Shown here one piece after another: positions 160 to 13,304 of a DNA stretch of 13,880 nucleotides. Below the pieces are notes generated by a model. The model made no database searches. It saw only the letters and a program-made list of their open reading frames with translations, and was not told the DNA's origin. Numbering within the stretch: position 1 is the stretch's first letter; each line of letters opens with the position of its first letter. The DNA is from a virus. The stretch is from the UHGV virus genome UHGV-1775278; one strand, given 5' to 3'. A program made the translations under genes and the position numbers.

Positions 160-365
160 AGGATGTGCATTGATGATGATTCGATGCGGCGAGTCCCGTT
201 ACTCTCTGCCGGACCATCATCAATGAACATCTTAAAAAGACCTTCCGTGGCTCAACATGTCTTGTTGTTTACTCCGTAAAGTGCTCTCTCTGAAACCACT
301 TTACGCACTAAACCTGCTGAACTTTGGCTTGCTCGGTGCCAAAGCGAGTCCCTGTATGCATGTAA

Positions 366-375
366 TTTTCTAACA
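366..375 (-). promoter_or_regulatory. Copy 1 of conserved element TTTTCTAACA (minus-strand reading TGTTAGAAAA)
   Basis: Exact 10-mer in the non-coding 1-533 region; one of five copies, all in the same orientation. Confidence 0.5.
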
Positions 376-389
376 CTTTAATTTGTTAT

Positions 390-465
390 TTGCTGGTGGG
401 CGAACAACAACCAATAAGTGACTATCAAGCCCAGCAAGCGAAATGTGGCAACGCTCCACCAGCAA
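390..465. repeat. Inverted pair of Chi octamers within a 10-bp inverted repeat (TTGCTGGTGG ... CCACCAGCAA)
   Basis: GCTGGTGG at 392-399 and its reverse complement CCACCAGC at 456-463. The flanking bases extend the match to a perfect 10-bp inverted repeat (390-399 and 456-465). Non-coding DNA. Confidence 0.6.
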
Positions 466-521
466 GGAAAATTCTAAGTTAAGTTACTCTCACAATCAAT
501 ATGTTCGTTTGATGAAATTAG

Positions 522-531
522 ATTTCTAACA
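522..531 (-). promoter_or_regulatory. Copy 2 of conserved element (ATTTCTAACA, 9 of 10 identical to the other copies)
   Basis: Begins 2 nt after the stop codon of the 406-aa gene. The flanks AAATTAGaTTTCTAACATATT closely match copy 3 (AAATTAGtTTTCTAACATATT). Confidence 0.5.
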
Positions 532-533
532 TA

Positions 534-1754
534 TTATTTCCCATAAAGATCTTCTACGCCCCCATTCTTCTTGTCCCATTCGTTAGCCCACACCCGGCAG
601 GCATCAATAATTTCTTGACGACGGTCGCCCTGCATAAAGGGGATGCTTTCATGAAAACTACTTGGGATACAGGCCACGCTGAATACGGTATCAAACGCAG
701 TCTGTTTGATAGCTTCCAACGTCTCTGGGCGCATTTTCAATTCATCGATCGGCGCATCCTTAGAGTCCATAATCCGGCGATGCAGGCGCGGGAAATCAGT
801 CTCCAGGTACGCCATAATTTTATCTGCCAGGCATTCGTCTATATCGGTATTCCAGTCCGTTTCGAAGCCGGGCAGGCGATAGTAAAGCGGCGTTCCCCAT
901 ACTGATGGGATCACATCCATCGTCAGCAGGCGGTTGGTTCTAATTTGTTGATGGTAATTAGCCGTCAACAGAGCTTCACCACGCTGACCAGTCTCCGCAA
1001 CCAGACCATGCGGGTACTCATGGATATAGGCAATAGCATCCACCCCGTCATACATGAGCGGGAATGTCTCTGGCCTTTGTCCCATACCACAAGCGCGGTT
1101 CAGATCATGACCAAGCTGTGAACACTCTCGTTTCAGCGTTTCAATAATGTTCTGCGCTGCTGCTAACTTTTTACGCAGTGTGACACCTTCGCCTTGATAC
1201 TTAATGCACTGCTGATTCAGCTCTGTTAAACGCTCTTTTAGTTCCCGACGCTCTCTTTTCAGCGCACGGTTATCCTTCTCCGCAACATCCAGTCGTTTTG
1301 ACAGGCTGGCTGGATAGTCTTTTTTGTAACGACTCAAATCGGCTTCTGCGGATTTGCGCAGTGTGTTTGCCTGTTCAAGACGCGCTTCCAGATTGCCGAT
1401 CTCACTACGCATACTCGCGGCAAATTGATTAACAGCATCGCCAAGACTTTCAACTGTCGCTGATACGCCTGTGACTCGTGAAAAACGGAGCAAGCCATCA
1501 TTAACAGCTTGTTGATATTCCTCAAACTGATCCACCAGCTTGTTGTAATCAACCGTCCCTTCCTCAAGTAGCTGGTTGATCTCCGCGACCAGGTTATCAG
1601 TCGTGGCAATGACGCTCTCATGTAACCGTCTGGACAGGTCATCCCCCGGATTCCGCTTTTGAATAAGGGCGATCTGTGTCCGCAGCGTTTCAATCGCGGC
1701 TGAGATGATTTCCAGATTAGAAGTATCAGTTTGTTGACTCATTGCAGTTCCCAT
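534..1754 (-). CDS. Hypothetical protein, N-terminal coiled-coil plus C-terminal globular domain (406 aa)
   Basis: Long uninterrupted minus-strand ORF. The N-terminal ~200 aa is charged and Leu-rich with heptad-like spacing (e.g. LEARLEQANTLRKSAEADL, RERRELKERLTELNQQ); the C-terminal ~200 aa is non-repetitive. A second in-frame ATG at 1742 has GGGA about 6 nt upstream, so the true start may be 1742. Element copy 3 and the terminator of the upstream operon lie just 5' of it. No family recognised. Confidence 0.7.
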   Translation of the reverse strand: MGTAMSQQTDTSNLEIISAAIETLRTQIALIQKRNPGDDLSRRLHESVIATTDNLVAEINQLLEEGTVDYNKLVDQFEEYQQAVNDGLLRFSRVTGVSATVESLGDAVNQFAASMRSEIGNLEARLEQANTLRKSAEADLSRYKKDYPASLSKRLDVAEKDNRALKRERRELKERLTELNQQCIKYQGEGVTLRKKLAAAQNIIETLKRECSQLGHDLNRACGMGQRPETFPLMYDGVDAIAYIHEYPHGLVAETGQRGEALLTANYHQQIRTNRLLTMDVIPSVWGTPLYYRLPGFETDWNTDIDECLADKIMAYLETDFPRLHRRIMDSKDAPIDELKMRPETLEAIKQTAFDTVFSVACIPSSFHESIPFMQGDRRQEIIDACRVWANEWDKKNGGVEDLYGK

Positions 1755-1770
1755 TGTTTTGCAAAATTAG

Positions 1771-1780
1771 TTTTCTAACA
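1771..1780 (-). promoter_or_regulatory. Copy 3 of conserved element TTTTCTAACA
   Basis: Located 17 nt upstream of the 406-aa gene start and downstream of the terminator at 1823-1849. A TAAAAT -10-like hexamer lies just 5' of it on the minus strand. Confidence 0.55.
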
Positions 1781-1822
1781 TATTTTATTAGTATGAGAAC
1801 AAGATCGAAAGATGTGATAAAC

Positions 1823-1849
1823 AAAAAACCCGCTAATCGGCGGGTTTTT
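1823..1849. terminator. Intrinsic terminator hairpin, bidirectional (A-run, CCCGC stem, 6-nt loop, GCGGG stem, T-run)
   Basis: Sequence AAAAAACCCGCtaatcgGCGGGTTTTT. On the minus strand the hairpin is followed by TTTTTT and sits directly after the stop of the 1856-2155 gene, closing the VRR-NUC operon. Confidence 0.65.
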
Positions 1850-1855
1850 GAGCGG

Positions 1856-2155
1856 TTATTGTGTCATTGCCTGGTAGATAAAATACACGATGCATACCGG
1901 TACGATAGCCCATTGCAGCAATGAAAGCAGCCTCATGGCTGTCATTGGAGTAACTCCGTCTACGTATTCCTTCTCTGACATTTTCCCTAACCAACTAACC
2001 GACAAAAGGGTCGAGTTCTCCCCCATTTCCAGCTCCCTGAGGGCTTCCCGGATTAAAGGCGCTGTTACCACCTTGCGGGCGGTGTTGAGCGTAATGCTCC
2101 GCGTCCTCCCGGCGTCATCGGCAAACGCCAGGTTCACATGATATTTTTTGCTCAA
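1856..2155 (-). CDS. Small hypothetical protein with C-terminal hydrophobic (probable transmembrane) segment
   Basis: The ORF track gives 1856-2170, but that start has no Shine-Dalgarno. An in-frame TTG at 2155 has GGGAG 8 nt upstream and overlaps the upstream stop as TTGA. C-terminus LLSLLQWAIVPVCIVYFIYQAM is hydrophobic. No family recognised. Confidence 0.5.
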   Translation of the reverse strand: MSKKYHVNLAFADDAGRTRSITLNTARKVVTAPLIREALRELEMGENSTLLSVSWLGKMSEKEYVDGVTPMTAMRLLSLLQWAIVPVCIVYFIYQAMTQ

Positions 2156-2352
2156 TGTACAAACTCCCAATCATCAGCGCCTGTACTTTCCGGGGTAATG
2201 TGAACCTTATCACCAGTGACAATATTCCGAGCCTCTATTGTTCCATTGCTGTGTTTCAACAACTCAACACACAATGGTTGCTGCCAGGAACGACGGCGAG
2301 CAACAACGTTAGCACCAGCAGGGATAAGTTCAGCCACGTTAAGTAAACGCAA
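2152..2352 (-). CDS. Small 66-aa protein, paralog of the 11762-11959 gene; tentatively DUF2829/Tad2-like
   Basis: TTG start with GGAGA 7 nt upstream, 14 nt after the VRR-NUC stop. Shares with the other copy the layout A..G.A.V.RR..W near the N-terminus and DW(E/I)(F/V)V at the C-terminus (GANVVARRRSW ... GADDWEFVH). Family assignment is from memory of the family pattern, not a search. Confidence 0.5.
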   Translation of the reverse strand: MRLLNVAELIPAGANVVARRRSWQQPLCVELLKHSNGTIEARNIVTGDKVHITPESTGADDWEFVH

Positions 2353-2366
2353 AACGATTTCTCCGT

Positions 2367-2675
2367 TTAATCAAGACAAACATATTCCGTGATAGCTTTT
2401 ATGGCTTCAGCGGCACTGCGCGCCTCAAAGCAGTAGTAACCTGCTTCGGTGAGGCGAGTCATCCAGACGAGTTGTTCGGGAGTCAGGCGATTTCTCCCAT
2501 GTTTCATCTCAATGCGCATTCCGTGGTATCCCCCACAAGCAAGGTCTATAGAAAGATCGGGATATCCCTTCTTTTGGCCCTCTGCCACCATTTTTATTGC
2601 CGTCCTTATGCCTCGCAGACCGCCGTTTGGAGTGGCGTGTGTATGCTCATACACATAGCGCATATTGCGATACAA
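2367..2675 (-). CDS. VRR-NUC domain nuclease (PD-(D/E)xK superfamily)
   Basis: Motifs HATPNGG, KGYPDLSI, GMRIEMKHGRNRLTPEQ and a C-terminal EAGYY..EARSAAEAIKAI helix match the VRR-NUC pattern. The only canonical start is TTG at 2675, but the frame stays open to 2810 and the extra codons still look like VRR-NUC helix 1 (HYEQVRVLDWL). Confidence 0.75.
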   Translation of the reverse strand: MYRNMRYVYEHTHATPNGGLRGIRTAIKMVAEGQKKGYPDLSIDLACGGYHGMRIEMKHGRNRLTPEQLVWMTRLTEAGYYCFEARSAAEAIKAITEYVCLD

Positions 2676-2812
2676 CCAATCCAGGACGCGTACCTGCTCG
2701 TAATGCTCATGGTTCCTTTTGATTAGATCTGGGTTTTTCTCCAGTTCTCTGAGAGCTGCGGCATGTGGGGACGTTTCAGAATATTCACTGCGACGCCTTC
2801 TTTTCCTCGCTA

Positions 2813-2822
2813 TTTTCTAACA
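2813..2822 (-). promoter_or_regulatory. Copy 4 of conserved element TTTTCTAACA
   Basis: Lies at the head of the VRR-NUC operon; the TAG inside the element is the stop that opens the VRR-NUC reading frame. Confidence 0.5.
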
Positions 2823-2996
2823 CACCCATTGATAGTAAATAAGCGAAATAATAACAACTGCGTTAGATTTGTAAAACAAGAGAGATACTACTCAAGGCTG
2901 GGCTATATGCAACAGGTAGGATTTGCTTTTAGAGTAAAAAGTGACCTTAATCAACAAGGAGGGTAAATCGCATGGCATTTACCCAACTTGTTATTT

Positions 2997-3257
2997 TTAA
3001 AGGTTTATTTTATCCGGTTCGGATATTTCTGTGATTGTCTTGTCGATTGCGATCAACCACCCTTCATAGGTTAAATCATCAACAAGCTCTACCAGTTTGT
3101 CTTCTGTATGAGGGAAGTATACCCAGCTCCAGCTCGCTGGGTTTTCTGCTTTTCGCAGCGTAAAAACCTTCTTGTAACGGTGAAACTCAAGGACATACCC
3201 CTTCGATATGGAATATTCCTTTAGGTCTTCGACCGTAAACCTACGATTCTTTCGCAT
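2997..3257 (-). CDS. Hypothetical protein (86 aa)
   Basis: ATG start 2 nt after the stop of the 144-aa gene (TAGccATG) with a G-rich stretch upstream. Last gene of the operon that contains the giant gene. No family recognised. Confidence 0.5.
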   Translation of the reverse strand: MRKNRRFTVEDLKEYSISKGYVLEFHRYKKVFTLRKAENPASWSWVYFPHTEDKLVELVDDLTYEGWLIAIDKTITEISEPDKINL

Positions 3258-3259
3258 GG

Positions 3260-3694
3260 CTACCCCATGATTCGATATTTCTCTATTGACTCGTCGTAAC
3301 TTGTGTACACGTATGGCTCTGTATCATCAGCATAAGGTGCGACTTCCAGAGCATGAACGGGATTGTATACCGCGTCATTTTCCAGGCGATCGCTCGAATA
3401 CAGATGCCCAGCCAAAACCGTAAGCGCCGGGCGACTCATTTTGTAGATCTCTGCCACATCACTATCTACAACTTGTCCAAATGATATGTCGCCGCGCTCC
3501 AGCAATATCGTTTTGAGCGCGGGCCACCACGGACCATAAAGGTGATAAAGCTGTGGATTTTTCTTCAGCCTTTCTACCATGCCATCAAGATAAACTGTCA
3601 GGTATTCTTCTTCACTCCTGCCATTGAGTGCCTGCGGCAAGATTTCCTCAAGGTAGGATTCCGTCGGTTTTACAGTGTCAATTAGTGTCGTCAT
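3260..3694 (-). CDS. Hypothetical protein (144 aa), immediately downstream of the giant methyltransferase-helicase gene
   Basis: ATG at 3694 lies 36 nt after the giant ORF stop. Same strand, acidic protein, no family recognised. Confidence 0.6.
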   Translation of the reverse strand: MTTLIDTVKPTESYLEEILPQALNGRSEEEYLTVYLDGMVERLKKNPQLYHLYGPWWPALKTILLERGDISFGQVVDSDVAEIYKMSRPALTVLAGHLYSSDRLENDAVYNPVHALEVAPYADDTEPYVYTSYDESIEKYRIMG

Positions 3695-3701
3695 TCAAAT
3701 T

Positions 3702-3719
3702 CGGCCCCGGTTGGGGCCG
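3702..3719 (-). other. GC-rich hairpin (CGGCCCC ggtt GGGGCCG) between a Shine-Dalgarno sequence and the start codon of the 144-aa gene
   Basis: 7-bp perfect GC stem with 4-nt loop. On the minus strand the order is TAA (giant ORF stop), cagat, AAGGAG, hairpin, aatttga, ATG. Confidence 0.55.
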
Positions 3720-3730
3720 CTCCTTATCTG

Positions 3731-6700
3731 TTAGGCCGCATCGGCGATTATTTTACGCAGTTCATCTACCGAGTAACGCGTAGATACCATCCATGCCGGA
3801 CGGTCAAAGTTCACATCAGCAACCGGGTTTGCTTCAAAATTCCAGAAACGCCCGCCAATCTTCTTAATCGCGTCCTTGGCGTTCCGTATTGTCGAGGAAC
3901 CGGGCTGATCGGCAATGAGATAAACGGCTCCCACATCTTCACTGACACTCCACCAGCGCCCGCGAACACGGGCTTTAGCGCGAATCGGCTTATCATTAAC
4001 CACAATGATATAGTCATCATTCGCCGCTTCATCAGCTCTGGCTTCAGCCACTGCCGCCTGCTCTTCTCTTTTGCTTTCAGCCTGCTCAAGCCTTTCCGCG
4101 ATCTCTGATTCAGTGGCCCCGCCGTTTTTCAGCGATACATAGTCCTGCCACGTTGCCGATTTGAGCGCATCCGGCAACTCATTCACATAGTCGCCGTCTT
4201 TCAACTCACGGGCGCGACGGGTAGCCATTTCTACCAGGCGATTAACAGAAACAGCATCAGCAAAATCGTCCTTACTAATGTGTTTTTCATCAAATGCATT
4301 GATGACAGCCCCCACCTTAATCCACTGCGCTGCTGGCGAATCCAGAGGATTATCGGCCTGAACAATGGCTAATTTCGCTCCATCGACACCATTATTAGCC
4401 AGCTGCTCCAATGCCGACCAGCCATCGGCATCGCTGAGTGATTTATATTGCTCAAACAATGCATCGCGCCAGGCCACCAGCGCAGCTCGTGTTTTCTCAA
4501 TTTTCGCCGTAATTTTCGCGGCCTTCACCTGATTAAACATCCGTTCAATGTCATCAGTGTTGCTAAAGGCTTTCATCCTGCCCTGGAATAAACGGTATGC
4601 CACCACGGTCTTCCAGAAAGATTCCAGCCCTTCTCCGGACGGTTTACGGAACAGGCTAAGAATATCTTCAGAAGTAACTTTATTAAGTGAGCGACTGGAC
4701 AAACCACGCCCTGCCATCCAGTTTTCAAACTCCTGGGAAACATCATCCATCGTGGCCTGTGCCCCCCATGCCTGCATTCCCTGGATGTAATCATATCCAT
4801 ACAATGCCTGGAGGAATCCCTCGCCGTCCACGACATTCAGCGGGTTATCACTGGCTTGTATTTTTGCCACTTCACGCTTCAGCGCCTCATCGTTGCCATC
4901 AGGGTAAATCCACCGCTCAGGCGCTATATCCGATGCTCGCCCGATTTTTTGACCTATTACGCCATCATAAGCCGATGACAGTGCAATCTGACCATCATCG
5001 GTGCGATAAGCCCAGTATTTAATAGCTGAACCACCGCCCCATACTCTACCAGGCTTCCCGGCAGTGACATTCATTACCCCATTGCGAATAGCATCATAGA
5101 ACTGATCGCGCGTAAGTGTTGTTGATAGCTGGTGGCATTGAACACCACGTGCAGCTGTTTCACGCGATTCTGCAACTCCCTCTTCAAAGGTTACCGATTC
5201 AATTATCAGGTTAAAGGGCAAAAATAATGCCGTACCCGGAGAACGAGAGTAACGACTAGCCACATCCAGCCAGGATATGCGGCACGTACACCCGCCCCTT
5301 TCCGCATCAATGGCGGTAACACGAACAATTGCTGTCGTATTGTGATTCTCATCGATGATCGCGCGATAATGGCTGTCCTTGTGCAACAAGATATTTTTCT
5401 CAGTGCGTACATACTCCTGTGGGTTCTGCAATACATCGGCATCAAGCTCCAGAACCCCGGCTTTAATCGCACGTTCCAGATCACCACGGGAACGTTTCAT
5501 AACGGTGTCAGCGTCTTTAGCTCTGGTGATCGCAAAGCGTAGCTCCCGCACACGTTTTCTGTAGTCTCGCAACTGTTCCAGAACATATTTCTGCCCGTTC
5601 CTGTTCGTCCCCGCTTTAATCAGGTCGTCAAGATTGCGCTGGTAATGCTCTACCTGCTCCATCGCGCTTTTCAGTTCTGTCTCCATCATGCCGATATCTT
5701 TCCCGGCAGCATTCGCCGCTTTCAGGTAGTTATCGAGAGCATTATTGGCTTCGCGTAGGGCTTTCAGTTTCAGACGTTCTTCACGCTCTTGCGCCTGACG
5801 ACTCATGATTGCACGGCGTTCTTCCGGATTTGCCGCCAGCATAATGGCGCGTTCATCTGCGTCATCCGCATCACCATTGGCGATCTCTGACATGTCGGAG
5901 GTCATCACCATATTGATCCAGTCCTTCTTACGTTTCAGCGTATCCAGACGGAAGTCGTCGAATGTGCCTTTGCCACAATAGTAGTGAACATTGACCTTTT
6001 CTTGCGGTGAACCTACGCGCGCACCGCGCCCATTTCGTTGGTCGATACTGGCTGGTGTCCAGGGTAGTGTCAGGTGGTGGATATCGGTTGTCCCGATGTG
6101 CAGGTTAATACCTACTTCAGCCTTCTTGTTACAGATTATGATGCGCGTGCGACCTTCGTTATAGTCGGCGGCAATACCTTCCATGCCCTCAAGGCCAGCA
6201 TCATTTTTAGCTGAGAGATAATCCTCATATTGGGCAAGTTTGCTGTAGTAGGTTTCCCATGCACCTTCTTTGTATTCACCGTTTTTATTTGGCGTAGGTT
6301 CAGTAGGCTTATTCACCTTCTTCAGCTTGACGCCGCCAGCCTGGCTAACTGTCGTCGCATTGATAATGCCTATCTCCTGCTCCGGCATTTGCAGTGCACT
6401 GGCAATAATACGGCGCAGCTTCTGGTGCTGGGCTTTTTCATCAATGAAGACGATTTGTTTACCGTTCTTCAGACCTTCACGAAGGTTTTCGATCAGCGCG
6501 GCATACTTCGGCGGGATGGGGTGTGATACCTGCTGCATATCAATACCGGCAGCCGCAATGGCCTTCAGTATTTCAGCTTCCAGTTCAATGCCAGCACGTA
6601 TTTCAACATGCGACGGATGTTCGCTAAAGGTGGTCTTCACTACCTTGCTGGTACGCGTACTGACCAGCCCACCAGCGCCATCTTCTTCGGCCTCGTCTGC

Positions 6701-9700
6701 ATCATCTGCCACTTTACCGCCAGCTACTTTTGGCAGGGCATCAGCAATAGCTTTTACCTTGTCTGCAAGCTCAACGGGGAACTGGAATGTAATCGCACTG
6801 GCATACAGATCAGGATCTATAGCAACCTTATCCATGTCGCGGATGATGGAGAAGATGAAATCATCCGGTTTTTCGTTTGTGATATGCCCGTTTTCATCGA
6901 CCGTCAGCGCATCTTTACTACTTAACTCCTGTGCACGCTTACGAAGTTCTTCGTAAATGGCCTCTTGCTCTCCTGTCATCGGGATCTGCAAGGTATTCTC
7001 GACAATATCAGGGATTTTTACCGTCGCCCCGACGTCCGCAGCAGTCTTCAGAGTAGTCCAGCGATGGAAAATACCACGCAGACCATCCAGGTTCTGGAAG
7101 CCCACCAGCCCCTGCTTCTCTTCCACCTCACCGGAAATTTTCTGAACCTGAACTGTGGCTGTTTTACCGAACACGCGAACGAAATCATCCGGCGTAACAA
7201 TACCCATGCGCATCCACTCTTCCTGCGGAATGACAGTAGACAGCATGTTGAAAGCATCAATCGGGCTGTTCACCAGCGGTGTTGCCGTCAGCATAACCAC
7301 ACCACGCCCGTTGTTGCGTTTCATCATGTACGCAGCTTTTACAGCCATATCACGAGCCATTTTGGATACTGCCGGGTTAGGCAAATATGCCAGTTGCCCC
7401 GCTTCGCGCCCGGCGCTAAAGGAGTTGCGGTAGTTATGCCCTTCGTCGGCAATTACGCTATCGAAGTTCATATCCTCAAAGTACGGGATATTCTGCTTCT
7501 TCGTTGTACCGGTATTTGCGGCCTGGTCCTTAATCTTGTTCTTCTTCTGCGCGTCACGGTGTTTGCCAGATGCCAGGTCAAGACGCCCCATTTCCACAGC
7601 ATTAAAGACCGCTTGCTGTGAGTTTTCCTCAATGGTTTCTTCTCGTAGCGGGATAGACGCGAATTGCTCTTTTGTCATGATGACCGTTCGCCAATTTGAC
7701 GACGGGATCATGTTCATGCGCTGAACGATAACGGCGCTGGCGGACTCTTTCACAACATTTCTGGTAAGAGCCTGCCCGTTACTGTCGAGGCGTGGTTCGC
7801 CATTTTCATCAAGCACCGGCGCGGTCAGAATATTTCCGCTGTCATCACGAACTTCATCCAAACCGATAAACATCATATTAGCGAAGGCATCAGCACTGTA
7901 GAAACTCTGTGCCTCGTGATACCAGTTCTGATAAACCGCCTTCGGAACAACAATACACGTGCGTTTAGTGCGACCTGTTTCGAAGTTATACGCCTCAAGC
8001 GCAAGCGCGGTCGTGGTTTTACCCAGCCCGGTGCCAAATCCCATGATGCCGCGCCCATCTTCTGATAAGCGACGAACTTCTTCATTCTGATAAGTCAGAG
8101 GAATGCGCTTCCCACTAATCCCCTCCAGGCCAAGCGGTGCGTCAGAATGCGTAAACGGGATGAAGCCATTAAATGCGTCGTTATAGTCGCGGGCTATCTG
8201 ATCAGCCTGCGGGTGAGTGCGTAACCAGTCGTTGAAGCTAATTTCCAATTGAGCAATCTTATCCAGGTACTCGTTAGCGTTCTGCCCACGCGGTTTAATG
8301 CCGTTCAGGTAGTTTTCTAACTGGTTCAGGAAGCCGTCTTTATTGTTGGCCTTCTTGAACTCATTCCCGTTTTTGCCGTTTACGGTTCGTAGTTGATAGC
8401 CAGTAAATACCCCGTCCTTACCTTCGTAATCGTCCGGAGATACCAGAATGCCGTCCTCAACCTTAAGGTCGGGTTCTGTATACTTAAACTCGTCATAGCC
8501 CTGCTCTGCCAGGAACTCTTTTATCAAGCGGCGATCCAGCCAGCGGGCGTTCAGATTAACGGTGACTTTATTTAGTGGCGTGAAAATGCGTTTCTCTTCG
8601 ATTTTCGCCAACTGACGCTCAAAGTTCGCTTTCTGCTCACCTGTTGACGCATCACGCCAGCCCACCAGCAATGCTGTTTTGGTTGCAATATCGCCGCTGG
8701 TGGCGCGGTCCATCGGCAGCAGGCAGCCATACCCATCAATAGCGATATCATCAAATTTCGCCAGGTATTCCAGAGCAGCATCGTCGTCTCCTGGCAGTTC
8801 GCCAGCAAACGCCTCACGAAAATCGTCCAGTGTGATTGGATTAAGTGCCACGTCACTGAAAAGGTGGGTTACAACTTGTTCCGGGCGTGTAAAATCAATA
8901 CCGGCAGCACCATCCGTTACATCAAGTCGTCCAGCAAGGAGGTCAGAAGCAGAGCCGTCCTGTTTCACGTTGCCAGTGAAAGTCATCCAGTTTTTAGCGC
9001 CAGCTTCAGCAATCCCATTCAGCTTAATCGCGTGCGGCGGACCATACTTCGCAATTTCGGCTTCCGCCAGGCGCGCGGCATCAGCAAGTTCATCATCAAC
9101 ATTTTCCCCCAGATTACGCTTATCAAGCGCCTTGTTGATCAACTGCCCTATCAGTGCGCCGCGCATAACGCGTTCTCTGTCTTTTTCTCTCTGCTTGCCA
9201 GCAAAGCGAATCATTGCCGCTACTTCATCACTGATAACCGATGGATAGTCGGACGCGATCGCCGATATCTGGTCCCATGACAACGCCAGAATGCCATTTG
9301 TTGACTGAAACGCGATCTGCAGATCGCCAAACGTCGAAACACCATATCGGCTTACATCAAGCGCGGAGGATTTGGTTGTCGTGTCCTTGACCCATTTCAG
9401 GCCATCAAACTCATGCCAGATGCCGCCTACAAGGCGTTTATCGCCCACTTTCGCGCCCTGCCATGCCTGAGTAGTTACGCCGAGCAAATCCCAATTAATG
9501 CGGCTTTCAAAGCGGCGCGATAGAGCGGTTTTCATCGACTCATTGGATACACGACCGTCCTTTTTCACCACCAGGGTATTGCGGAAGCTGGTACGCTCCA
9601 TATCGCCGTAAACAAATCGCTTCCCTTCGGTTGTAAACCATTTTCCTTTGAGGAAGGTATCCCAAAGGACGTTTGCCGATTTGAGCGTCGAATCATCCGT

Positions 9701-10687
9701 ATCGGGGATCATCTCCAGAAAGGCTTCCGGGTGTTTACGCAATACCCATACGTCCACCACGGTATCTGTACCTGATTCACTGAACGTACCGGAAGGCATA
9801 CGATGCGCGCCCAAAAATTCCGCTTTACGGCTGACTTTATCGCGCAATTTTTTGTATTTCGTACCATCAGTCATGCCATTCGGCACCACCAATACGATAA
9901 GCCCACCAGGTTTAACCTTGTCGATCGTGCGCAGCACAAAGTAATTGCCAACGTTCTTCTCGTTTGCATATGCCGGATCAAGCCCTGCAACGCCGGAACG
10001 GCCTTCGCCAAACGGTACGTTACCAACAGCGTGATCATACATTGCGTCTTTCGCCGCCAGAGCCTCGAACGCCCCAATGTTCACATCGTCTTCCGGGTGC
10101 AACAGCTGGTTGATTCGACCGGAGATCGGAGACAGCTCGGCGCTGGTCATTATCATTCCCTGCCGTTTTGTCTCCTGGAAAATACCCGTGCCAGCTGATG
10201 GTTCCAGTACGTGACCGCCATCAATACCGTAGTCAGCAAACAGCTCCCATATACCTTCAGCCATAAACTGTGGTGTGTAGTATTCGTATTGACTGCCTTC
10301 GCCGTCAGTAAGGCCGCCTTCACCTGTATACCCTGCAAGAATCTGACGCTGTTCGTCAGTTAATTTCGCCCCATCGAATCCGGGCGGAAGGGAATTAAGA
10401 AGATCTACTGCGGCGTTGTTTGCTGCCCGCCGTGTTTTTTGAATGCTGACACCATCGACTTTCTTAACGCCAAAGGTCGCAACAGATCGCGGTTTATGCA
10501 ACCGACTAACAATTTCAATCAGCGCCCCAATGCTGGTGGCCTGGCTAATTGAATCAATTATTTTGTCCAAAGGAAGCCCCCTCAAAACCGTTAAATCCGC
10601 CTGTAGCGGTACGGTTTGAAAGGGTATGGAGTGTGTTAATTTGGAAGAATAAGAGCGGAAAAGGTCAGGCGATACGAACGAACTCAC
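3731..10687 (-). CDS. Giant fused N6-adenine DNA methyltransferase / SNF2-like helicase (2318 aa), DarB-like anti-restriction candidate
   Basis: Single 6.96-kb ORF. Codons verified by hand: methyltransferase motif I LEPSAGTG (10184-10207) and motif IV NVPFG (10007-10021); helicase Walker A GFGTGLGKTT (8012-8041), motif II DEGH (7436-7447), LTATP motif and motif VI QRNGRGAR (about 6017-6040). About 760 C-terminal residues have no recognised domain. GTG start with weak Shine-Dalgarno. Confidence 0.9.
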   Translation of the reverse strand: MSSFVSPDLFRSYSSKLTHSIPFQTVPLQADLTVLRGLPLDKIIDSISQATSIGALIEIVSRLHKPRSVATFGVKKVDGVSIQKTRRAANNAAVDLLNSLPPGFDGAKLTDEQRQILAGYTGEGGLTDGEGSQYEYYTPQFMAEGIWELFADYGIDGGHVLEPSAGTGIFQETKRQGMIMTSAELSPISGRINQLLHPEDDVNIGAFEALAAKDAMYDHAVGNVPFGEGRSGVAGLDPAYANEKNVGNYFVLRTIDKVKPGGLIVLVVPNGMTDGTKYKKLRDKVSRKAEFLGAHRMPSGTFSESGTDTVVDVWVLRKHPEAFLEMIPDTDDSTLKSANVLWDTFLKGKWFTTEGKRFVYGDMERTSFRNTLVVKKDGRVSNESMKTALSRRFESRINWDLLGVTTQAWQGAKVGDKRLVGGIWHEFDGLKWVKDTTTKSSALDVSRYGVSTFGDLQIAFQSTNGILALSWDQISAIASDYPSVISDEVAAMIRFAGKQREKDRERVMRGALIGQLINKALDKRNLGENVDDELADAARLAEAEIAKYGPPHAIKLNGIAEAGAKNWMTFTGNVKQDGSASDLLAGRLDVTDGAAGIDFTRPEQVVTHLFSDVALNPITLDDFREAFAGELPGDDDAALEYLAKFDDIAIDGYGCLLPMDRATSGDIATKTALLVGWRDASTGEQKANFERQLAKIEEKRIFTPLNKVTVNLNARWLDRRLIKEFLAEQGYDEFKYTEPDLKVEDGILVSPDDYEGKDGVFTGYQLRTVNGKNGNEFKKANNKDGFLNQLENYLNGIKPRGQNANEYLDKIAQLEISFNDWLRTHPQADQIARDYNDAFNGFIPFTHSDAPLGLEGISGKRIPLTYQNEEVRRLSEDGRGIMGFGTGLGKTTTALALEAYNFETGRTKRTCIVVPKAVYQNWYHEAQSFYSADAFANMMFIGLDEVRDDSGNILTAPVLDENGEPRLDSNGQALTRNVVKESASAVIVQRMNMIPSSNWRTVIMTKEQFASIPLREETIEENSQQAVFNAVEMGRLDLASGKHRDAQKKNKIKDQAANTGTTKKQNIPYFEDMNFDSVIADEGHNYRNSFSAGREAGQLAYLPNPAVSKMARDMAVKAAYMMKRNNGRGVVMLTATPLVNSPIDAFNMLSTVIPQEEWMRMGIVTPDDFVRVFGKTATVQVQKISGEVEEKQGLVGFQNLDGLRGIFHRWTTLKTAADVGATVKIPDIVENTLQIPMTGEQEAIYEELRKRAQELSSKDALTVDENGHITNEKPDDFIFSIIRDMDKVAIDPDLYASAITFQFPVELADKVKAIADALPKVAGGKVADDADEAEEDGAGGLVSTRTSKVVKTTFSEHPSHVEIRAGIELEAEILKAIAAAGIDMQQVSHPIPPKYAALIENLREGLKNGKQIVFIDEKAQHQKLRRIIASALQMPEQEIGIINATTVSQAGGVKLKKVNKPTEPTPNKNGEYKEGAWETYYSKLAQYEDYLSAKNDAGLEGMEGIAADYNEGRTRIIICNKKAEVGINLHIGTTDIHHLTLPWTPASIDQRNGRGARVGSPQEKVNVHYYCGKGTFDDFRLDTLKRKKDWINMVMTSDMSEIANGDADDADERAIMLAANPEERRAIMSRQAQEREERLKLKALREANNALDNYLKAANAAGKDIGMMETELKSAMEQVEHYQRNLDDLIKAGTNRNGQKYVLEQLRDYRKRVRELRFAITRAKDADTVMKRSRGDLERAIKAGVLELDADVLQNPQEYVRTEKNILLHKDSHYRAIIDENHNTTAIVRVTAIDAERGGCTCRISWLDVASRYSRSPGTALFLPFNLIIESVTFEEGVAESRETAARGVQCHQLSTTLTRDQFYDAIRNGVMNVTAGKPGRVWGGGSAIKYWAYRTDDGQIALSSAYDGVIGQKIGRASDIAPERWIYPDGNDEALKREVAKIQASDNPLNVVDGEGFLQALYGYDYIQGMQAWGAQATMDDVSQEFENWMAGRGLSSRSLNKVTSEDILSLFRKPSGEGLESFWKTVVAYRLFQGRMKAFSNTDDIERMFNQVKAAKITAKIEKTRAALVAWRDALFEQYKSLSDADGWSALEQLANNGVDGAKLAIVQADNPLDSPAAQWIKVGAVINAFDEKHISKDDFADAVSVNRLVEMATRRARELKDGDYVNELPDALKSATWQDYVSLKNGGATESEIAERLEQAESKREEQAAVAEARADEAANDDYIIVVNDKPIRAKARVRGRWWSVSEDVGAVYLIADQPGSSTIRNAKDAIKKIGGRFWNFEANPVADVNFDRPAWMVSTRYSVDELRKIIADAA

Positions 10688-11009
10688 CGTCTATTGCGTG
10701 TTCACCCCCGGCATCATCTCGCATAACAGCACACTGACCTGGAAGGCCATAACGAACAACCATACAACGAACACCATCGCCACAACCGCTCTGAGTCCTG
10801 TTTTGTCTCCTCTCATACGATTTTACCCGTTCAAGTGTTCGCCTTGTTGATTCGAGATAATACTGTTTGTCGATTGCATCCGTACTATGCAGCAAGTAAG
10901 CCACCCCGGACACATCAAACGGAGGCGATCCAATCTCCATTGTCACCCACTCACGGTTATCCGGTTCAAAGTAGCTGAGTATCTCTTTTTTTCTTCTTGT
11001 CAGTCTCAT
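10665..11009 (-). CDS. Hypothetical protein (114 aa) whose 3' end overlaps the giant gene start by 23 nt
   Basis: ATG at 11009 with GAGG 8 nt upstream. Sits directly downstream of the palindromic control region. The C-terminal third is low complexity, so the true extent is uncertain. Confidence 0.5.
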   Translation of the reverse strand: MRLTRRKKEILSYFEPDNREWVTMEIGSPPFDVSGVAYLLHSTDAIDKQYYLESTRRTLERVKSYERRQNRTQSGCGDGVRCMVVRYGLPGQCAVMRDDAGGEHAIDGEFVRIA

Positions 11010-11020
11010 GTTTGCAACCT

Positions 11021-11052
11021 CTTATTGTGGGATAGCTCTATCCTACAATAAG
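11021..11052. promoter_or_regulatory. 32-bp near-perfect palindrome (CTTATTGTGGGATAG ct CTATCCTACAATAAG), candidate operator
   Basis: 15-bp arms at 11021-11035 and 11038-11052 with one mismatch. Lies 12 bp upstream of the 114-aa gene start, in the divergent region between the giant-gene operon and the lysin gene. Confidence 0.6.
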
Positions 11053-11067
11053 AAACGTAACAACATT

Positions 11068-11083
11068 TATGATTTAAATCATA
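11068..11083. promoter_or_regulatory. 16-bp perfect palindrome TATGATTTAAATCATA, candidate operator
   Basis: Exact self-complementary 16-mer in the same divergent intergenic region, 16 bp from the 32-bp palindrome. Confidence 0.5.
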
Positions 11084-11243
11084 TGGTTAATTAATGAGAA
11101 AGCTCAAACATTCAGTATACGGTTAACACTCAACATGCCACGGACAAGGAAGGCTTAGGGGCGTACCGGGGTAAGAAAATTGCTGCCATGAAAATCACAT
11201 ACTCCCCATAGTTTATGTTCATTTGTTAATCAGAGGGGTAGTT

Positions 11244-11729
11244 ATGGTAAGTTCCGATCCTCGTTGGCTGATGGAAGCCCGTAAACATATTGGCCTGACC
11301 GAAATCAAAGGGGCTAAACACAATCCTGAAATCGTCCAGTTCTGGCGGGATATTAAACGCGGTGGGATTAAAGACGATGAAACTCCGTGGTGCGCAGCAT
11401 TTGTTGGCGCAATGTTAGAGCGTGTGGGTATCCGCTCAACAAGATTTGAGTCGGCAAAATCCTATCTGGATTGGGGCGAGAAACTGGATACACCAGCATA
11501 CGGATGTATCGTTGTATTTACCCGCGTAGGCGGTGGGCATGTAGGCTTCGTCGTCGGACGCCGCGCCAATGGCGATCTGCTTGTCCTTGGTGGGAATCAG
11601 GGGGATGCGGTGAATATTCGCGCATTCCCGACATCAAGAGTGTCGGGCTATCGCTGGCCTGCTGGCGAACCACGCAATACAGCTCTGTTACCAGTCGGAG
11701 ACGCAGCAACCTCAACCAATGAGGCATGA
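11244..11729 (+). CDS. Papain-like Cys/His hydrolase (CHAP / NlpC-P60-like, TIGR02594-type), candidate endolysin
   Basis: ATG at 11244 has GAGGGG 5 nt upstream; the ORF-track start at 11223 is a TTG with no Shine-Dalgarno. Candidate catalytic Cys in ETPWCAAFVGA and His in GGGHVGFVVG, spaced as in CHAP-type amidases. Only plus-strand gene in the window. Confidence 0.75.
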   Translation: MVSSDPRWLMEARKHIGLTEIKGAKHNPEIVQFWRDIKRGGIKDDETPWCAAFVGAMLERVGIRSTRFESAKSYLDWGEKLDTPAYGCIVVFTRVGGGHVGFVVGRRANGDLLVLGGNQGDAVNIRAFPTSRVSGYRWPAGEPRNTALLPVGDAATSTNEA

Positions 11730-11759
11730 AAAAAGCCCCGGCCAGGCCGGGGCATCACG
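11729..11759 (-). terminator. Intrinsic terminator for the minus-strand Rha operon (GC hairpin GCCCCGGCC a GGCCGGGGC followed by T-run on the minus strand)
   Basis: Perfect 9-bp arms at 11735-11753. The minus-strand reading is hairpin then TTTTTT. On the plus strand the hairpin follows the lysin stop but has no T-run. Confidence 0.7.
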
Positions 11760-11761
11760 CT

Positions 11762-11959
11762 TCAAGTCACGATCCAATCATTACCGACTATATCAGCCGT
11801 CGCTAAATCAACTTCCCGGATCTGGAGTCCATTAATACAAAACCACCCGGTAGTAGAGCAATTATCAGGCCAGGCCCATACACCAACACTCCATGCTTTA
11901 CGGCGGCACACTTCAGCCTGTCCTTCGCTGATTTTTTTTACCGCCTGCATGATGTCCAT
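11762..11959 (-). CDS. Small 65-aa protein, paralog of the 2152-2352 gene; tentatively DUF2829/Tad2-like
   Basis: ATG at 11959 has GGGGAGG 6 nt upstream and overlaps the Rha stop (TGATG). Carries the shared motifs GQAEVCRRKAW ... IVGNDWIVT. Last gene before the terminator. Confidence 0.55.
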   Translation of the reverse strand: MDIMQAVKKISEGQAEVCRRKAWSVGVWAWPDNCSTTGWFCINGLQIREVDLATADIVGNDWIVT

Positions 11960-12666
11960 CACTCACCTCCCCAACCGATCACCTGGAATTGCCCCATTTT
12001 GGGGTGATACCAGCGTTTTCCTCGGTGTTCAGCCTCAGACATCATCCGGTTAAAGGCATTCATAAAGGGAGATAAGGCCACAATAGAACGACGCGACAAT
12101 ACCCCCTCTGGCGTTAAAAACTCATGCGTATCGGTGGGGATACGGTAAGCATTGACCAGGTTACGGCATTTGGCTTCAGTCAGGCCGCATTTCGCCGCTA
12201 ACTGGCGGTAGCCAATGTAACCATCTGGCATGTTACCCTTCTTGATTTGCTCGACGGTTTCTACCACCTGGCTAACCTTTGACTCAACAACATGAAGCCG
12301 CTTTTGCTGCTGAACTGCATTTGCAGCCATTGCGGCGATCATCTCTATTTCGGTCAACGGCTGGCGTACTTGTTCTTCCAGTTCGCGCCAGCGGTCCACC
12401 AGCCGGGCGGTGAATTCCGGAGAGAGCTGCGCAACGACAATAATGCTGTCTCGTTTGCCTTGCTCGCCTTCGAAGACGTAAGCCTCGACACTACGGCGTA
12501 GTCCTAAGTTATTGATTTTTTCGAAAACCTGCAATGCAGGAAGTTGAATAACTCCAGATTTAGCCAGGCGCTCTATTGATATTTTTACGTTATCTGGACG
12601 ACTTCCCACCAGCTCCGCGATCTCAATGCTGGTCATTGATGGCTTTTCAAGAATGCAGATATCCAT
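11959..12666 (-). CDS. Rha-family phage regulatory protein (antirepressor-like)
   Basis: N-terminal MTSIEIAELVGSRPDNVKISIERL matches the Rha-family start pattern. Preferred start is the ATG at 12666 (GGAGG 7 nt upstream, ATGA overlap with the upstream ORF stop); the ORF-track start at 12711 has no Shine-Dalgarno. Confidence 0.8.
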   Translation of the reverse strand: MDICILEKPSMTSIEIAELVGSRPDNVKISIERLAKSGVIQLPALQVFEKINNLGLRRSVEAYVFEGEQGKRDSIIVVAQLSPEFTARLVDRWRELEEQVRQPLTEIEMIAAMAANAVQQQKRLHVVESKVSQVVETVEQIKKGNMPDGYIGYRQLAAKCGLTEAKCRNLVNAYRIPTDTHEFLTPEGVLSRRSIVALSPFMNAFNRMMSEAEHRGKRWYHPKMGQFQVIGWGGE

Positions 12667-13088
12667 CAGTGTGCCTCCGCAATTCCGGGATTGGTAATAT
12701 TGCGATACCAAGGATTAGTGTTTGGTTGTGATGAAGTAGAGAAACGGCCAGTCAGGACGCCATGTTGATCAGGGATCAGAGAACGGGCTTCTTTTTCAGT
12801 TGCGGCAATTGCGAAGTGATCACAGTGTTTTTGCAGGGAGTGGAAACGCCAGATAAATTCCGGGCGCGAGCAAGGATTGGCATTAACCATAGTTACGGCC
12901 TCATTCGTAGGTTTAACAACCTGCGCCCCGCTGCTAAACGGGTGGCAGGACGTGACGGGGTTAGCAGACTGGCACGAATGAAACCAGCAGGCCGAAGCCT
13001 CCCCATCACGCCCCACCATAATTCGGGCGTAACGTGGTTTTACGGACACAAAAATACCGCAATATCGGATATCTGCGGTTGTCCGCAT
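12666..13088 (-). CDS. Hypothetical Cys/His-rich protein (140 aa), uncertain
   Basis: Open frame between element copy 5 and the Rha gene, ending in an ATGA overlap with the Rha start. Six Cys and several His (CWFHSC, SCHPF, HCDHF). No convincing Shine-Dalgarno at either candidate ATG, so it could instead be a long 5' leader. Confidence 0.35.
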   Translation of the reverse strand: MRTTADIRYCGIFVSVKPRYARIMVGRDGEASACWFHSCQSANPVTSCHPFSSGAQVVKPTNEAVTMVNANPCSRPEFIWRFHSLQKHCDHFAIAATEKEARSLIPDQHGVLTGRFSTSSQPNTNPWYRNITNPGIAEAH

Positions 13089-13240
13089 TCGTATTCAGGC
13101 TGCTAAACCCGGTCGCAGAATTTGCTACGACGACATGAATATAAGCCTGAAAACATGGAAGATCAACTAAAAATTTCAGCAATGGATGACTTCAGTCGAT
13201 GATGCAGATCATACATTCCGATTTAGAAACAGCAAATTAA

Positions 13241-13250
13241 TTTTCTAACA
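13241..13250 (-). promoter_or_regulatory. Copy 5 of conserved element TTTTCTAACA, with inverted partner TTAGAAA 12 bp away
   Basis: Lies in the intergenic region between the stop of the partial gene (13305) and the 140-aa ORF / Rha operon. TTAGAAA at 13223-13229 is the reverse complement of TTTCTAA at 13242-13248. Confidence 0.5.
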
Positions 13251-13304
13251 CAAATTATCGGGCGAGCATTTTCCGATCATTGGGATGCTTTGTAGACACA
13301 CAGG

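Follow-up and report, generated by a model that had tools for sequence, protein, structure and literature searches.

A short element repeated at the heads of minus-strand transcription units in a 13,880-nt stretch of virus genome UHGV-1775278 (here called the window) is most probably the operator of a heteroimmune prophage repressor of the C1 family, carried by a D6-like phage-plasmid. We infer this role because its sites match the positions of P1 C1 operators, because the motif varies with the C1 clade, and because the replicon encodes a C1 homologue. The architecture is known from the P1 C1 regulon, while the recognition sequence is undescribed as far as the literature could be checked. A search for the motif or for D6 operators returned nothing relevant, within a coverage that did not include the D6 genome paper (Gilcrease & Casjens, 2018), which might list sites; the D6 GenBank record annotates the rox and cix sites and no operators.

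By its sequence the window is part of a D6-like, P1-related phage-plasmid. It is 99.8% identical to the E. coli plasmid NZ_CP116989.1 (92.5 kb), and phage D6 (NC_050154.1), a plasmid prophage and P1 relative, matches it with 91.8% identity and 96% coverage. More than 100 PLSDB records span at least 80% of the window; phage-plasmids of the D6 type are frequent in E. coli, Shigella and Salmonella, and some phage-plasmids of the P1 family carry resistance genes. According to the annotation of NZ_CP116989.1 and D6, the minus strand of the window holds repL (cut by the window end), the c4 RNA, icd, a Rha-type antirepressor gene, darB, ulx, pmgM (encoding a VRR-NUC protein), pmgR and pmgS.

Distribution of the repeated element

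The 10-mer TTTTCTAACA occurs four times in exact form, at 366–375 (copy 1), 1771–1780 (copy 3), 2813–2822 (copy 4) and 13241–13250 (copy 5), and twice with a single mismatch, as ATTTCTAACA at 522–531 (copy 2) and as TTTTCTAACT at 8313–8322. These six matches at up to one mismatch compare with 0.95 ± 0.93 expected, and none of 200 dinucleotide-preserving shuffles reached six. The five numbered copies had been reported in a preliminary description of this DNA as a repeat confined to non-coding sequence, and both statements held: all five lie where they had been placed, copy 2 begins right after the pmgS stop codon, and the TAG within copy 4 is, in the window, a stop codon in the frame of the VRR-NUC gene, which it precedes. 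We take the match at 8313–8322 as chance, because it lies inside a 2,300-aa DarB-like open reading frame (ORF) and scores below 5 bits on the 19-nt matrix described below.

In the direction of the adjoining genes, which are coded on the minus strand, the core reads TGTTAGAAAA. Fifteen D6 sites extend it to an asymmetric 19-nt consensus, T-R-TGTTAGAAAA-Y-TAA-W-W-T, and the AAATTA(G/A) flank that had been recognised as common to copies 2, 3 and 5 proved to be the 3' half of this longer motif. Copies 1 and 4 have the 5' half only (TGTGTTAGAAAA / AGTGTTAGAAAA), the AT-rich 3' half being weak or missing. A matrix for the 19-nt motif was applied to D6 and to the window; P1 and NZ_CP116989.1 were analysed by pattern search.

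Scanning D6 with the matrix gave 16 sites that reached 15 bits or more, where shuffled genomes gave 0.25. Thirteen of the 16 are fully intergenic in a genome of which intergenic DNA makes up only 10.2%; two extend over the final codons of ref and cre, and the remaining one falls within an N-terminal extension of pmgM that is doubtful. The exact 10-mer is present ten times in NZ_CP116989.1, each time between genes. When the window, D6 and two other plasmids were aligned, the motif cores were invariant and their immediate flanks changed. That the repeats might be chance, or a by-product of base composition, could be argued from the AT-richness of intergenic DNA and from the low-complexity A/T sequence of the motif's 3' half; given the excess over shuffled sequence and the conservation of cores where flanks diverge, we regard the probability of this as negligible.

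The search of the whole replicon and its relatives, which the preliminary description had proposed, thus found nearly all sites to be intergenic but in both orientations. The claim of a single orientation, at the heads of minus-strand units, stands inside the window and fails across the replicon, where D6 sites occur in either direction relative to the flanking genes. The motif is antisense to the nearest downstream gene at lpa, at repL and in the ppp/pdcB spacer, and two D6 loci outside the window carry overlapping inverted pairs, at 64114–64132 (+)/64129–64147 (−) and at 80707–80725 (+)/80722–80740 (−). These arrangements bear on the proposal that the element is a conserved 5'-leader RNA feature, bound by a small RNA (sRNA), a protein or the ribosome. 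All five window copies do read in the sense direction of the unit that follows, some of them near start codons, but the mixed orientation genome-wide, the two inverted pairs, the overlap of the motif with a −35 hexamer at c4 (which places it upstream of the transcript) and the failure of any Rfam family to match the motif make a leader element very improbable.

Proposed operators and repressor type across P1-family phage-plasmids

P1 C1 binds 22 dispersed, asymmetric 17-bp operators with the consensus ATTGCTCTAATAAATTT (PMC8546580). Their positions were taken from the P1 GenBank record and, among the features listed there, include Oref before ref, Omat overlapping the 3' end of ref, Ossb before ssb, Oc4 before c4, OrepL before kilA-repL, Orlf between repL and rlfA, Odmt before uhr-hrdC-dmt, the divalent Obanab at the head of the ban operon, O26 between gene 26 and pmgL, Oppp after pmgM, OpmgRa/b before pmgR, OpmgT after pmgS and pap and before pmgT, and Olpa before lpa. 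The D6-type motif follows this pattern closely: it flanks ref on both sides, with one copy overlapping the last ref codons, and stands before c1, lpa, c4, repL, hrdC-dmt (as an overlapping inverted pair), pmgM and pmgS, and at the head of the tRNA/tci operon, which occupies the place of the P1 ban operon.

The two sets of sites share positions and differ in sequence. The c4/icd DNA is 86–88% identical to that of P1, and the homology stops before the control region, where the motif replaces Oc4. Allowing up to three mismatches, the P1 consensus has no match in D6, whereas half of P1 yields 14; the D6 motif, for its part, is no commoner in P1 than expected by chance. The lack of a match to the P1 consensus in D6 therefore indicates that the element is not an operator of P1 immunity; it represents a different specificity class within the same architecture.

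The distribution over operons also separates an operator from a phage-specific promoter element, or a site for the late activator Lpa, that would turn these units on. The core TGTTAGAAAAT does resemble an extended −10 (TGnTAGAAA / GAAAAT), copy 3 is close upstream of a start codon, and the adjoining pmg genes are named 'morphogenetic' in P1. The motif is nevertheless missing from most late operons, TGTTAGAAAA being absent upstream of lydA/darA, R/S, sit/pmgB, prt, 7 and 26, and it flanks lysogeny and early genes instead (c1, c4, repL, lpa, ref and dmt), in both orientations and in inverted pairs. A candidate for the late-promoter signal itself emerged elsewhere. Five P1 late promoters that were extracted have a −22 box, AAGTKACTT, and this P1 pattern has only two matches in D6. 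The D6 late operons prt, ddrB, R, pmgB/sit, 23, 7, mat and orf16 have AAATCACA-N-ACT in common, with a −10 after it and a placement like that of the P1 −22 box; this shared sequence is probably the Lpa-dependent late promoter of the D6 type, unlike AAGTKACTT of P1. We rejected a late-promoter identity for the repeated motif, since the D6 late operons use AAATCACA-N-ACT instead, and we consider a promoter or activator function highly unlikely. Of the three roles originally suggested for the element, the operator fits these data, and a promoter or activator site and a 5'-leader RNA do not. In the window itself, AAAATCACATACTCCCCATAGT at 11192–11199 (+), before a TIGR02594 lysozyme-like gene (11245–11730), is a copy of the AAATCACA-N-ACT box.

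Both D6 and NZ_CP116989.1 encode a 345-aa C1 homologue (D6 orf1 product; WP_047647013.1) beside a cre-like gene; in the replicon of the window the gene lies about 8 kb left of it. The C1 proteins of NZ_CP116989.1, D6 and P1 all match phrog_1678 (E = 7e-159 to 3e-140), and a Pfam search of the C1 proteins returned no match. The D6 protein is only 21% identical to P1 C1 (BLASTP, E = 2e-8), which has 283 aa. A strong copy of the motif lies 11 nt before the c1 start codon. Upstream of this c1-proximal site by 70–180 nt, NZ_CP116989.1 28040–28165 contains the partial copies AAGTTAGAAATTT and, inverted, TTTTCTAAATT, an arrangement which we take to resemble the c1/coi operator cluster of P1 (Op99a–e).

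The motif turns over with the type of C1. Relative to D6 C1, the NZ_CP116989.1 protein is 89.6% identical and variants on other plasmids are 80%, 70% and 68% identical. The 68% variant, on Salmonella pK91, has TGTTAGAAAATTAATT 11 nt before the c1 start; pK91 is a phage remnant only, which retains c1 and the adjoining motif. With the 70% variant, on an E. fergusonii plasmid, the motif is found before c1, pmgS and the VRR-NUC gene, twice after pmgS, and as an inverted pair before lpa. The D6 motif is absent from Leclercia and Citrobacter plasmids that have the same gene order and a C1 about 30% identical. In Leclercia pE1_003, CTTAGAATCTAT occurs four times, always between genes, including upstream of c1 and just after pmgS. 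On the Citrobacter plasmid the commonest intergenic 9-mer is CCTTAGAAT and 16 of 21 related sites are intergenic; sites of this type lie at rdgC-dam, ref, cre, c1 and repL, and also 8 and 188 nt after the pmgS stop, a geometry matching that of the window, where copies 2 and 1 follow the stop at 0 and 156 nt.

A protein other than C1 might bind the motif, such as the helix–turn–helix protein orf72, a Coi-like or second repressor, or a host nucleoid protein. Like many regulator sites, the motif is intergenic and rich in AT, and in the distant relatives all phage proteins diverged alongside it. We nonetheless judge another binding protein unlikely: the sites coincide one-for-one with experimentally mapped P1 C1 operators, including the overlap with the ref stop codon and the inverted pairs; the strong copy 11 nt before c1 is what autoregulation predicts; and the c1-adjacent motif persists in the pK91 remnant that kept c1.

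Several points weigh against assigning the element to C1, or limit how far the P1 model can be applied to it. The assignment rests on synteny and co-variation, and because the distant relatives diverged almost everywhere, co-variation does not single out C1. No homologue of the Lxc co-repressor was reported for the D6-like plasmid pYU39_89 (PMC6799933), and details of the P1 model may therefore not transfer. At lpa, the orientation of the motif to its target gene differs from that in P1. Copies 1 and 4 hold the 5' half only, and the full matrix gives copy 4 fewer than 5 bits; these two sites may be weak or lack function. The promoter assignments given below are consensus matches that arise at about the chance rate when scans are compared with shuffles, and they are offered as candidates only.

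Taken across these plasmids, a broader proposal appears likely on balance, with less confidence than the operator role itself: P1-family phage-plasmids would comprise at least three mutually exclusive repressor/operator specificities, those of P1 (ATTGCTCTAATAAATTT), of the D6 type (TGTGTTAGAAAAYTAATTT) and of the Leclercia/Citrobacter type (CCTTAGAAT...), exchanged operator by operator at the heads of conserved operons, whose downstream DNA is up to 95% identical. If true, such exchange would provide a natural set of orthogonal immunity systems with dispersed operators and would explain how heteroimmune phage-plasmids co-exist. The D6-type pair would be a second, probably orthogonal, repressor/operator pair beside the classical one of P1. 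Its operator sequence would define the C1 regulon of the group, and so the genes predicted to be silent in the prophage (antirepressor, lytic replication, late activator, tRNA/tci operon and ref), and would predict which elements are mutually immune. No new principle is involved; a counterpart to the P1 system that recognises a different sequence is to be expected.

Putative operators at individual transcription units

In the mechanism we propose, the 345-aa C1 would bind an asymmetric site of about 19 bp, present in about 16 copies over the 92-kb genome, beside or overlapping sigma-70 promoters. From the prophage it would shut off c4-icd-antirepressor through copy 5, pmgM-pmgR through copy 4, pmgS through copy 3 and the tRNA/tci unit through copies 1 and 2; outside the window it would silence c1 itself, lpa, repL, ref, hrdC-dmt and others.

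Copy 5 (13234..13252, minus strand; TGTGTTAGAAAATTAATTT) is a full-consensus site of 30.1 bits. It heads the c4-icd-ant(Rha) unit, as expected from the earlier suggestion that it opens the Rha operon, and alignment with P1 identifies it as the positional equivalent of Oc4 (Op51), upstream of conserved c4/icd DNA. The promoter scan found its last 2–3 nt to overlap the −35 of a candidate repressible sigma-70 promoter at 13208..13236 (−), read by consensus match as TTGCTG-16-TATGAT or TTTGCT-17-TATGAT and analogous to P1 P2c4/P51a. The P1 layout is alike, Oc4 (48140–48156) overlapping the P2c4 −35 (48154–48160), and repression at copy 5 would act by occluding the −35. A second promoter-like site, TTGATC-17-TATATT at 13138..13166 (−), aligns with P1 TTGACC...TATAGT and would be the analogue of P1c4/P51b.

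The first products of the copy-5 unit are the C4 antisense RNA and its a1/b1 targets (12938..13144), both scoring above the Rfam gathering score: C4 RNA at 12938–13023 (−; RF01695, 71.9 bits) and the a1/b1 target region at 13092–13144 (−; RF03163, 52.2 bits). They are followed by icd (12667–12891, −) and the Rha-family antirepressor gene (11960–12667, −), the presumed cargo regulated by copy 5, both placed by the annotation of NZ_CP116989.1 and D6. The unit thus resembles P1 immI with its Oc4 and P51a–P51b: an operator before tandem promoters, its 3' end over the upstream −35, then C4 RNA, targets, icd and antirepressor. It differs in that the antirepressor is of the Rha/Roi type where P1 has Ant1/Ant2, in the operator sequence, and in a spacing from operator to downstream promoter that is about 29 nt longer. 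Two further observations concern this region. A sub-threshold Rfam match to the Hfq-binding sRNA isrK (13050–13131, −; 46.5 bits against a gathering score of 50) overlaps the c4 a1/b1 target region, and in pPSS-08-1_2 an IS200/IS605-type TnpB gene (12965–14134) is inserted between the c4-icd-ant control region and repL, near the position of copy 5.

Copy 4 (2806..2824, −) consists of TGTGTTAGAAAA followed by a non-consensus 3' half. It sits at the 5' edge of the pmgM unit, the VRR-NUC operon that it had been described as opening; in P1, the C1 operators O26 and Oppp flank pmgL-pmgM. The copy-4 region of pPSS-08-1_2 shares only about 70% identity with the window, yet keeps TGTGTTAGAAA. About 17 nt upstream of copy 4 lies a strong promoter-like site at 2848..2877 (−), TTTACA-16-TGtTATTAT, with 10/12 matches and an extended −10; its hexamers and CTAACG are conserved in four genomes. 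A weak inverted half-site on the plus strand, CGTTAGATTT (2859–2877, 7.1 bits), overlaps the −35 of this promoter. Repression at copy 4, some 17 nt past the putative promoter, would be by a downstream block or a loop.

The start of pmgM, immediately adjacent, is peculiar. Upstream of the TTG at 2675, the first canonical start in frame, lies a conserved N-terminal part (SPHAAALRELEKNPDL..., 2676–2812, −) that is homologous to residues ~38–70 of P1 PmgM. The motif's in-frame TAG bounds this part in the window and in pPSS-08-1_2, and D6, with one extra A, reads through. A non-canonical start, a frameshift or a pseudogene could account for this.

Copy 3 (1764..1782, −; TATGTTAGAAAACTAATTT, 29.2 bits) lies between the pmgR terminator and pmgS and is the equivalent of P1 OpmgRa/b (Op86), which the P1 annotation says 'controls expression of pmgR and pmgS'. 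It had been described as standing between an intrinsic terminator and a start codon, and a terminator-like hairpin was found upstream of it at 1824..1849 (−), where it ends the pmgM-pmgR unit. Copy 3 is invariant in four genomes while both of its flanks vary. A candidate promoter matching the consensus, TTTCGA-17-TAAAAT at 1782..1810 (−), has a −10 that ends at the first base of copy 3, so that a repressor bound here would cover the −10/+1 start region. For copy 3, where the TAAAAT abuts it, and for copy 4, the earlier idea of an element located at the transcription start or just past it is plausible, but it does not hold generally.

Copy 2 (515..533, −; TATGTTAGAAATCTAATTT, 26.6 bits), directly after the pmgS stop codon, would be the upstream operator of the tRNA/tci unit. 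Its core is conserved, and a site directly after the pmgS stop is also present in the E. fergusonii, Leclercia and Citrobacter relatives. Copy 1 (359..377, −; AGTGTTAGAAAATTACATG, 15.6 bits) lies 156 nt beyond copy 2 and corresponds to P1 Obanab (Op72). ARAGORN and Rfam put the downstream tRNA genes on the minus strand in both D6 and NZ_CP116989.1, and copies 1 and 2 therefore head a minus-strand unit made up of a leader of about 1 kb, the tRNA genes and tciA/B. The D6 GenBank record puts these tRNAs on the plus strand (D6 7145–7850; NZ_CP116989.1 34115–35309), and the gene beside tRNA-Thr is tRNA-Asn (gtt) in D6 and tRNA-Arg (tct) in NZ_CP116989.1.

Between the two copies lies a promoter-like site at 471..499 (−), TTGATT-17-TAGAAT, with 9/12 matches and conserved in four genomes. 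Copies 2 and 1 bracket it at roughly −60 and +96, an arrangement that might permit a roadblock or repressor-mediated looping; such looping has been reported for P1 C1.

The head of this unit is unrelated to P1. Starting about 590 nt past copy 1 and as far as the tRNAs, the leader shares about 95% identity with the one that follows Obanab in the P1 ban operon. The likeness to Obanab (Op72) thus lies in two sites that precede this long leader, tRNAs and then tciA/B on the same strand; the P1 ban operon is composed of a dicF-like region, tRNAs, tciABC and ban. The window differs in having two sites of the same orientation 156 bp apart, where P1 has two overlapping inverted sites, and D6 has no annotated ban gene. 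No DicF-like RNA or other sRNA was found past copies 1 and 2 in a search with Rfam at E ≤ 1, which gave only C4-related RNAs in the window and tRNAs beyond it. The non-coding leader (about 550 nt; NZ_CP116989.1 ~35310–35795 versus P1 68.8–69.35 kb) is far more conserved than its surroundings, and the ~95%-identical stretch starts at a terminator-like hairpin (TTTGCCCATCTTCGGGTGGGC-Tn).

Related systems and neighbouring features

The closest known counterpart of the D6-type sites is the set of C1 operators of P1 and P7. Both are asymmetric sites of ~17–19 bp, dispersed in ~16–22 copies over a plasmid prophage of about 90 kb in both orientations, and in both, single sites occur along with overlapping inverted 'divalent' pairs. 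They serve the same operons (c1, lpa, c4-ant, repL, ref/mat, dmt, ban/tRNA and pmgR/S), and a homologous repressor is encoded beside a recombination site and a cre-like gene. In our own alignment, made without statistics, the P1/P7 consensus and the D6 consensus can be aligned at about 10 of 17 positions (TTG...TA..AAATT). Apart from the recognition sequence and the repressor itself, the differences are that some D6-type sites, as at lpa and c4, are opposite in orientation or at another distance from the target gene. A looser parallel is with the lambdoid phages (lambda, 434, P22 and HK022), in which the regulatory architecture is likewise kept and the repressor is swapped together with all its operators; lambdoid operators are palindromes grouped in two control regions, whereas those of the D6 type are asymmetric and dispersed.

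Two further features of the replicon were noted. Downstream of ref there is a second module, immI-like, with an icd-like gene and an antirepressor gene (NZ_CP116989.1 13384–13737; D6 74022–75178), and the motif copy overlapping the ref stop codon is about 200 nt upstream of it. Within the window, a 114-aa ORF at 10666–11010 (−), between darB and the TIGR02594 gene, has no annotated function; it is absent from D6, which explains the gap in the 96% coverage, and is present in the E. fergusonii relative.

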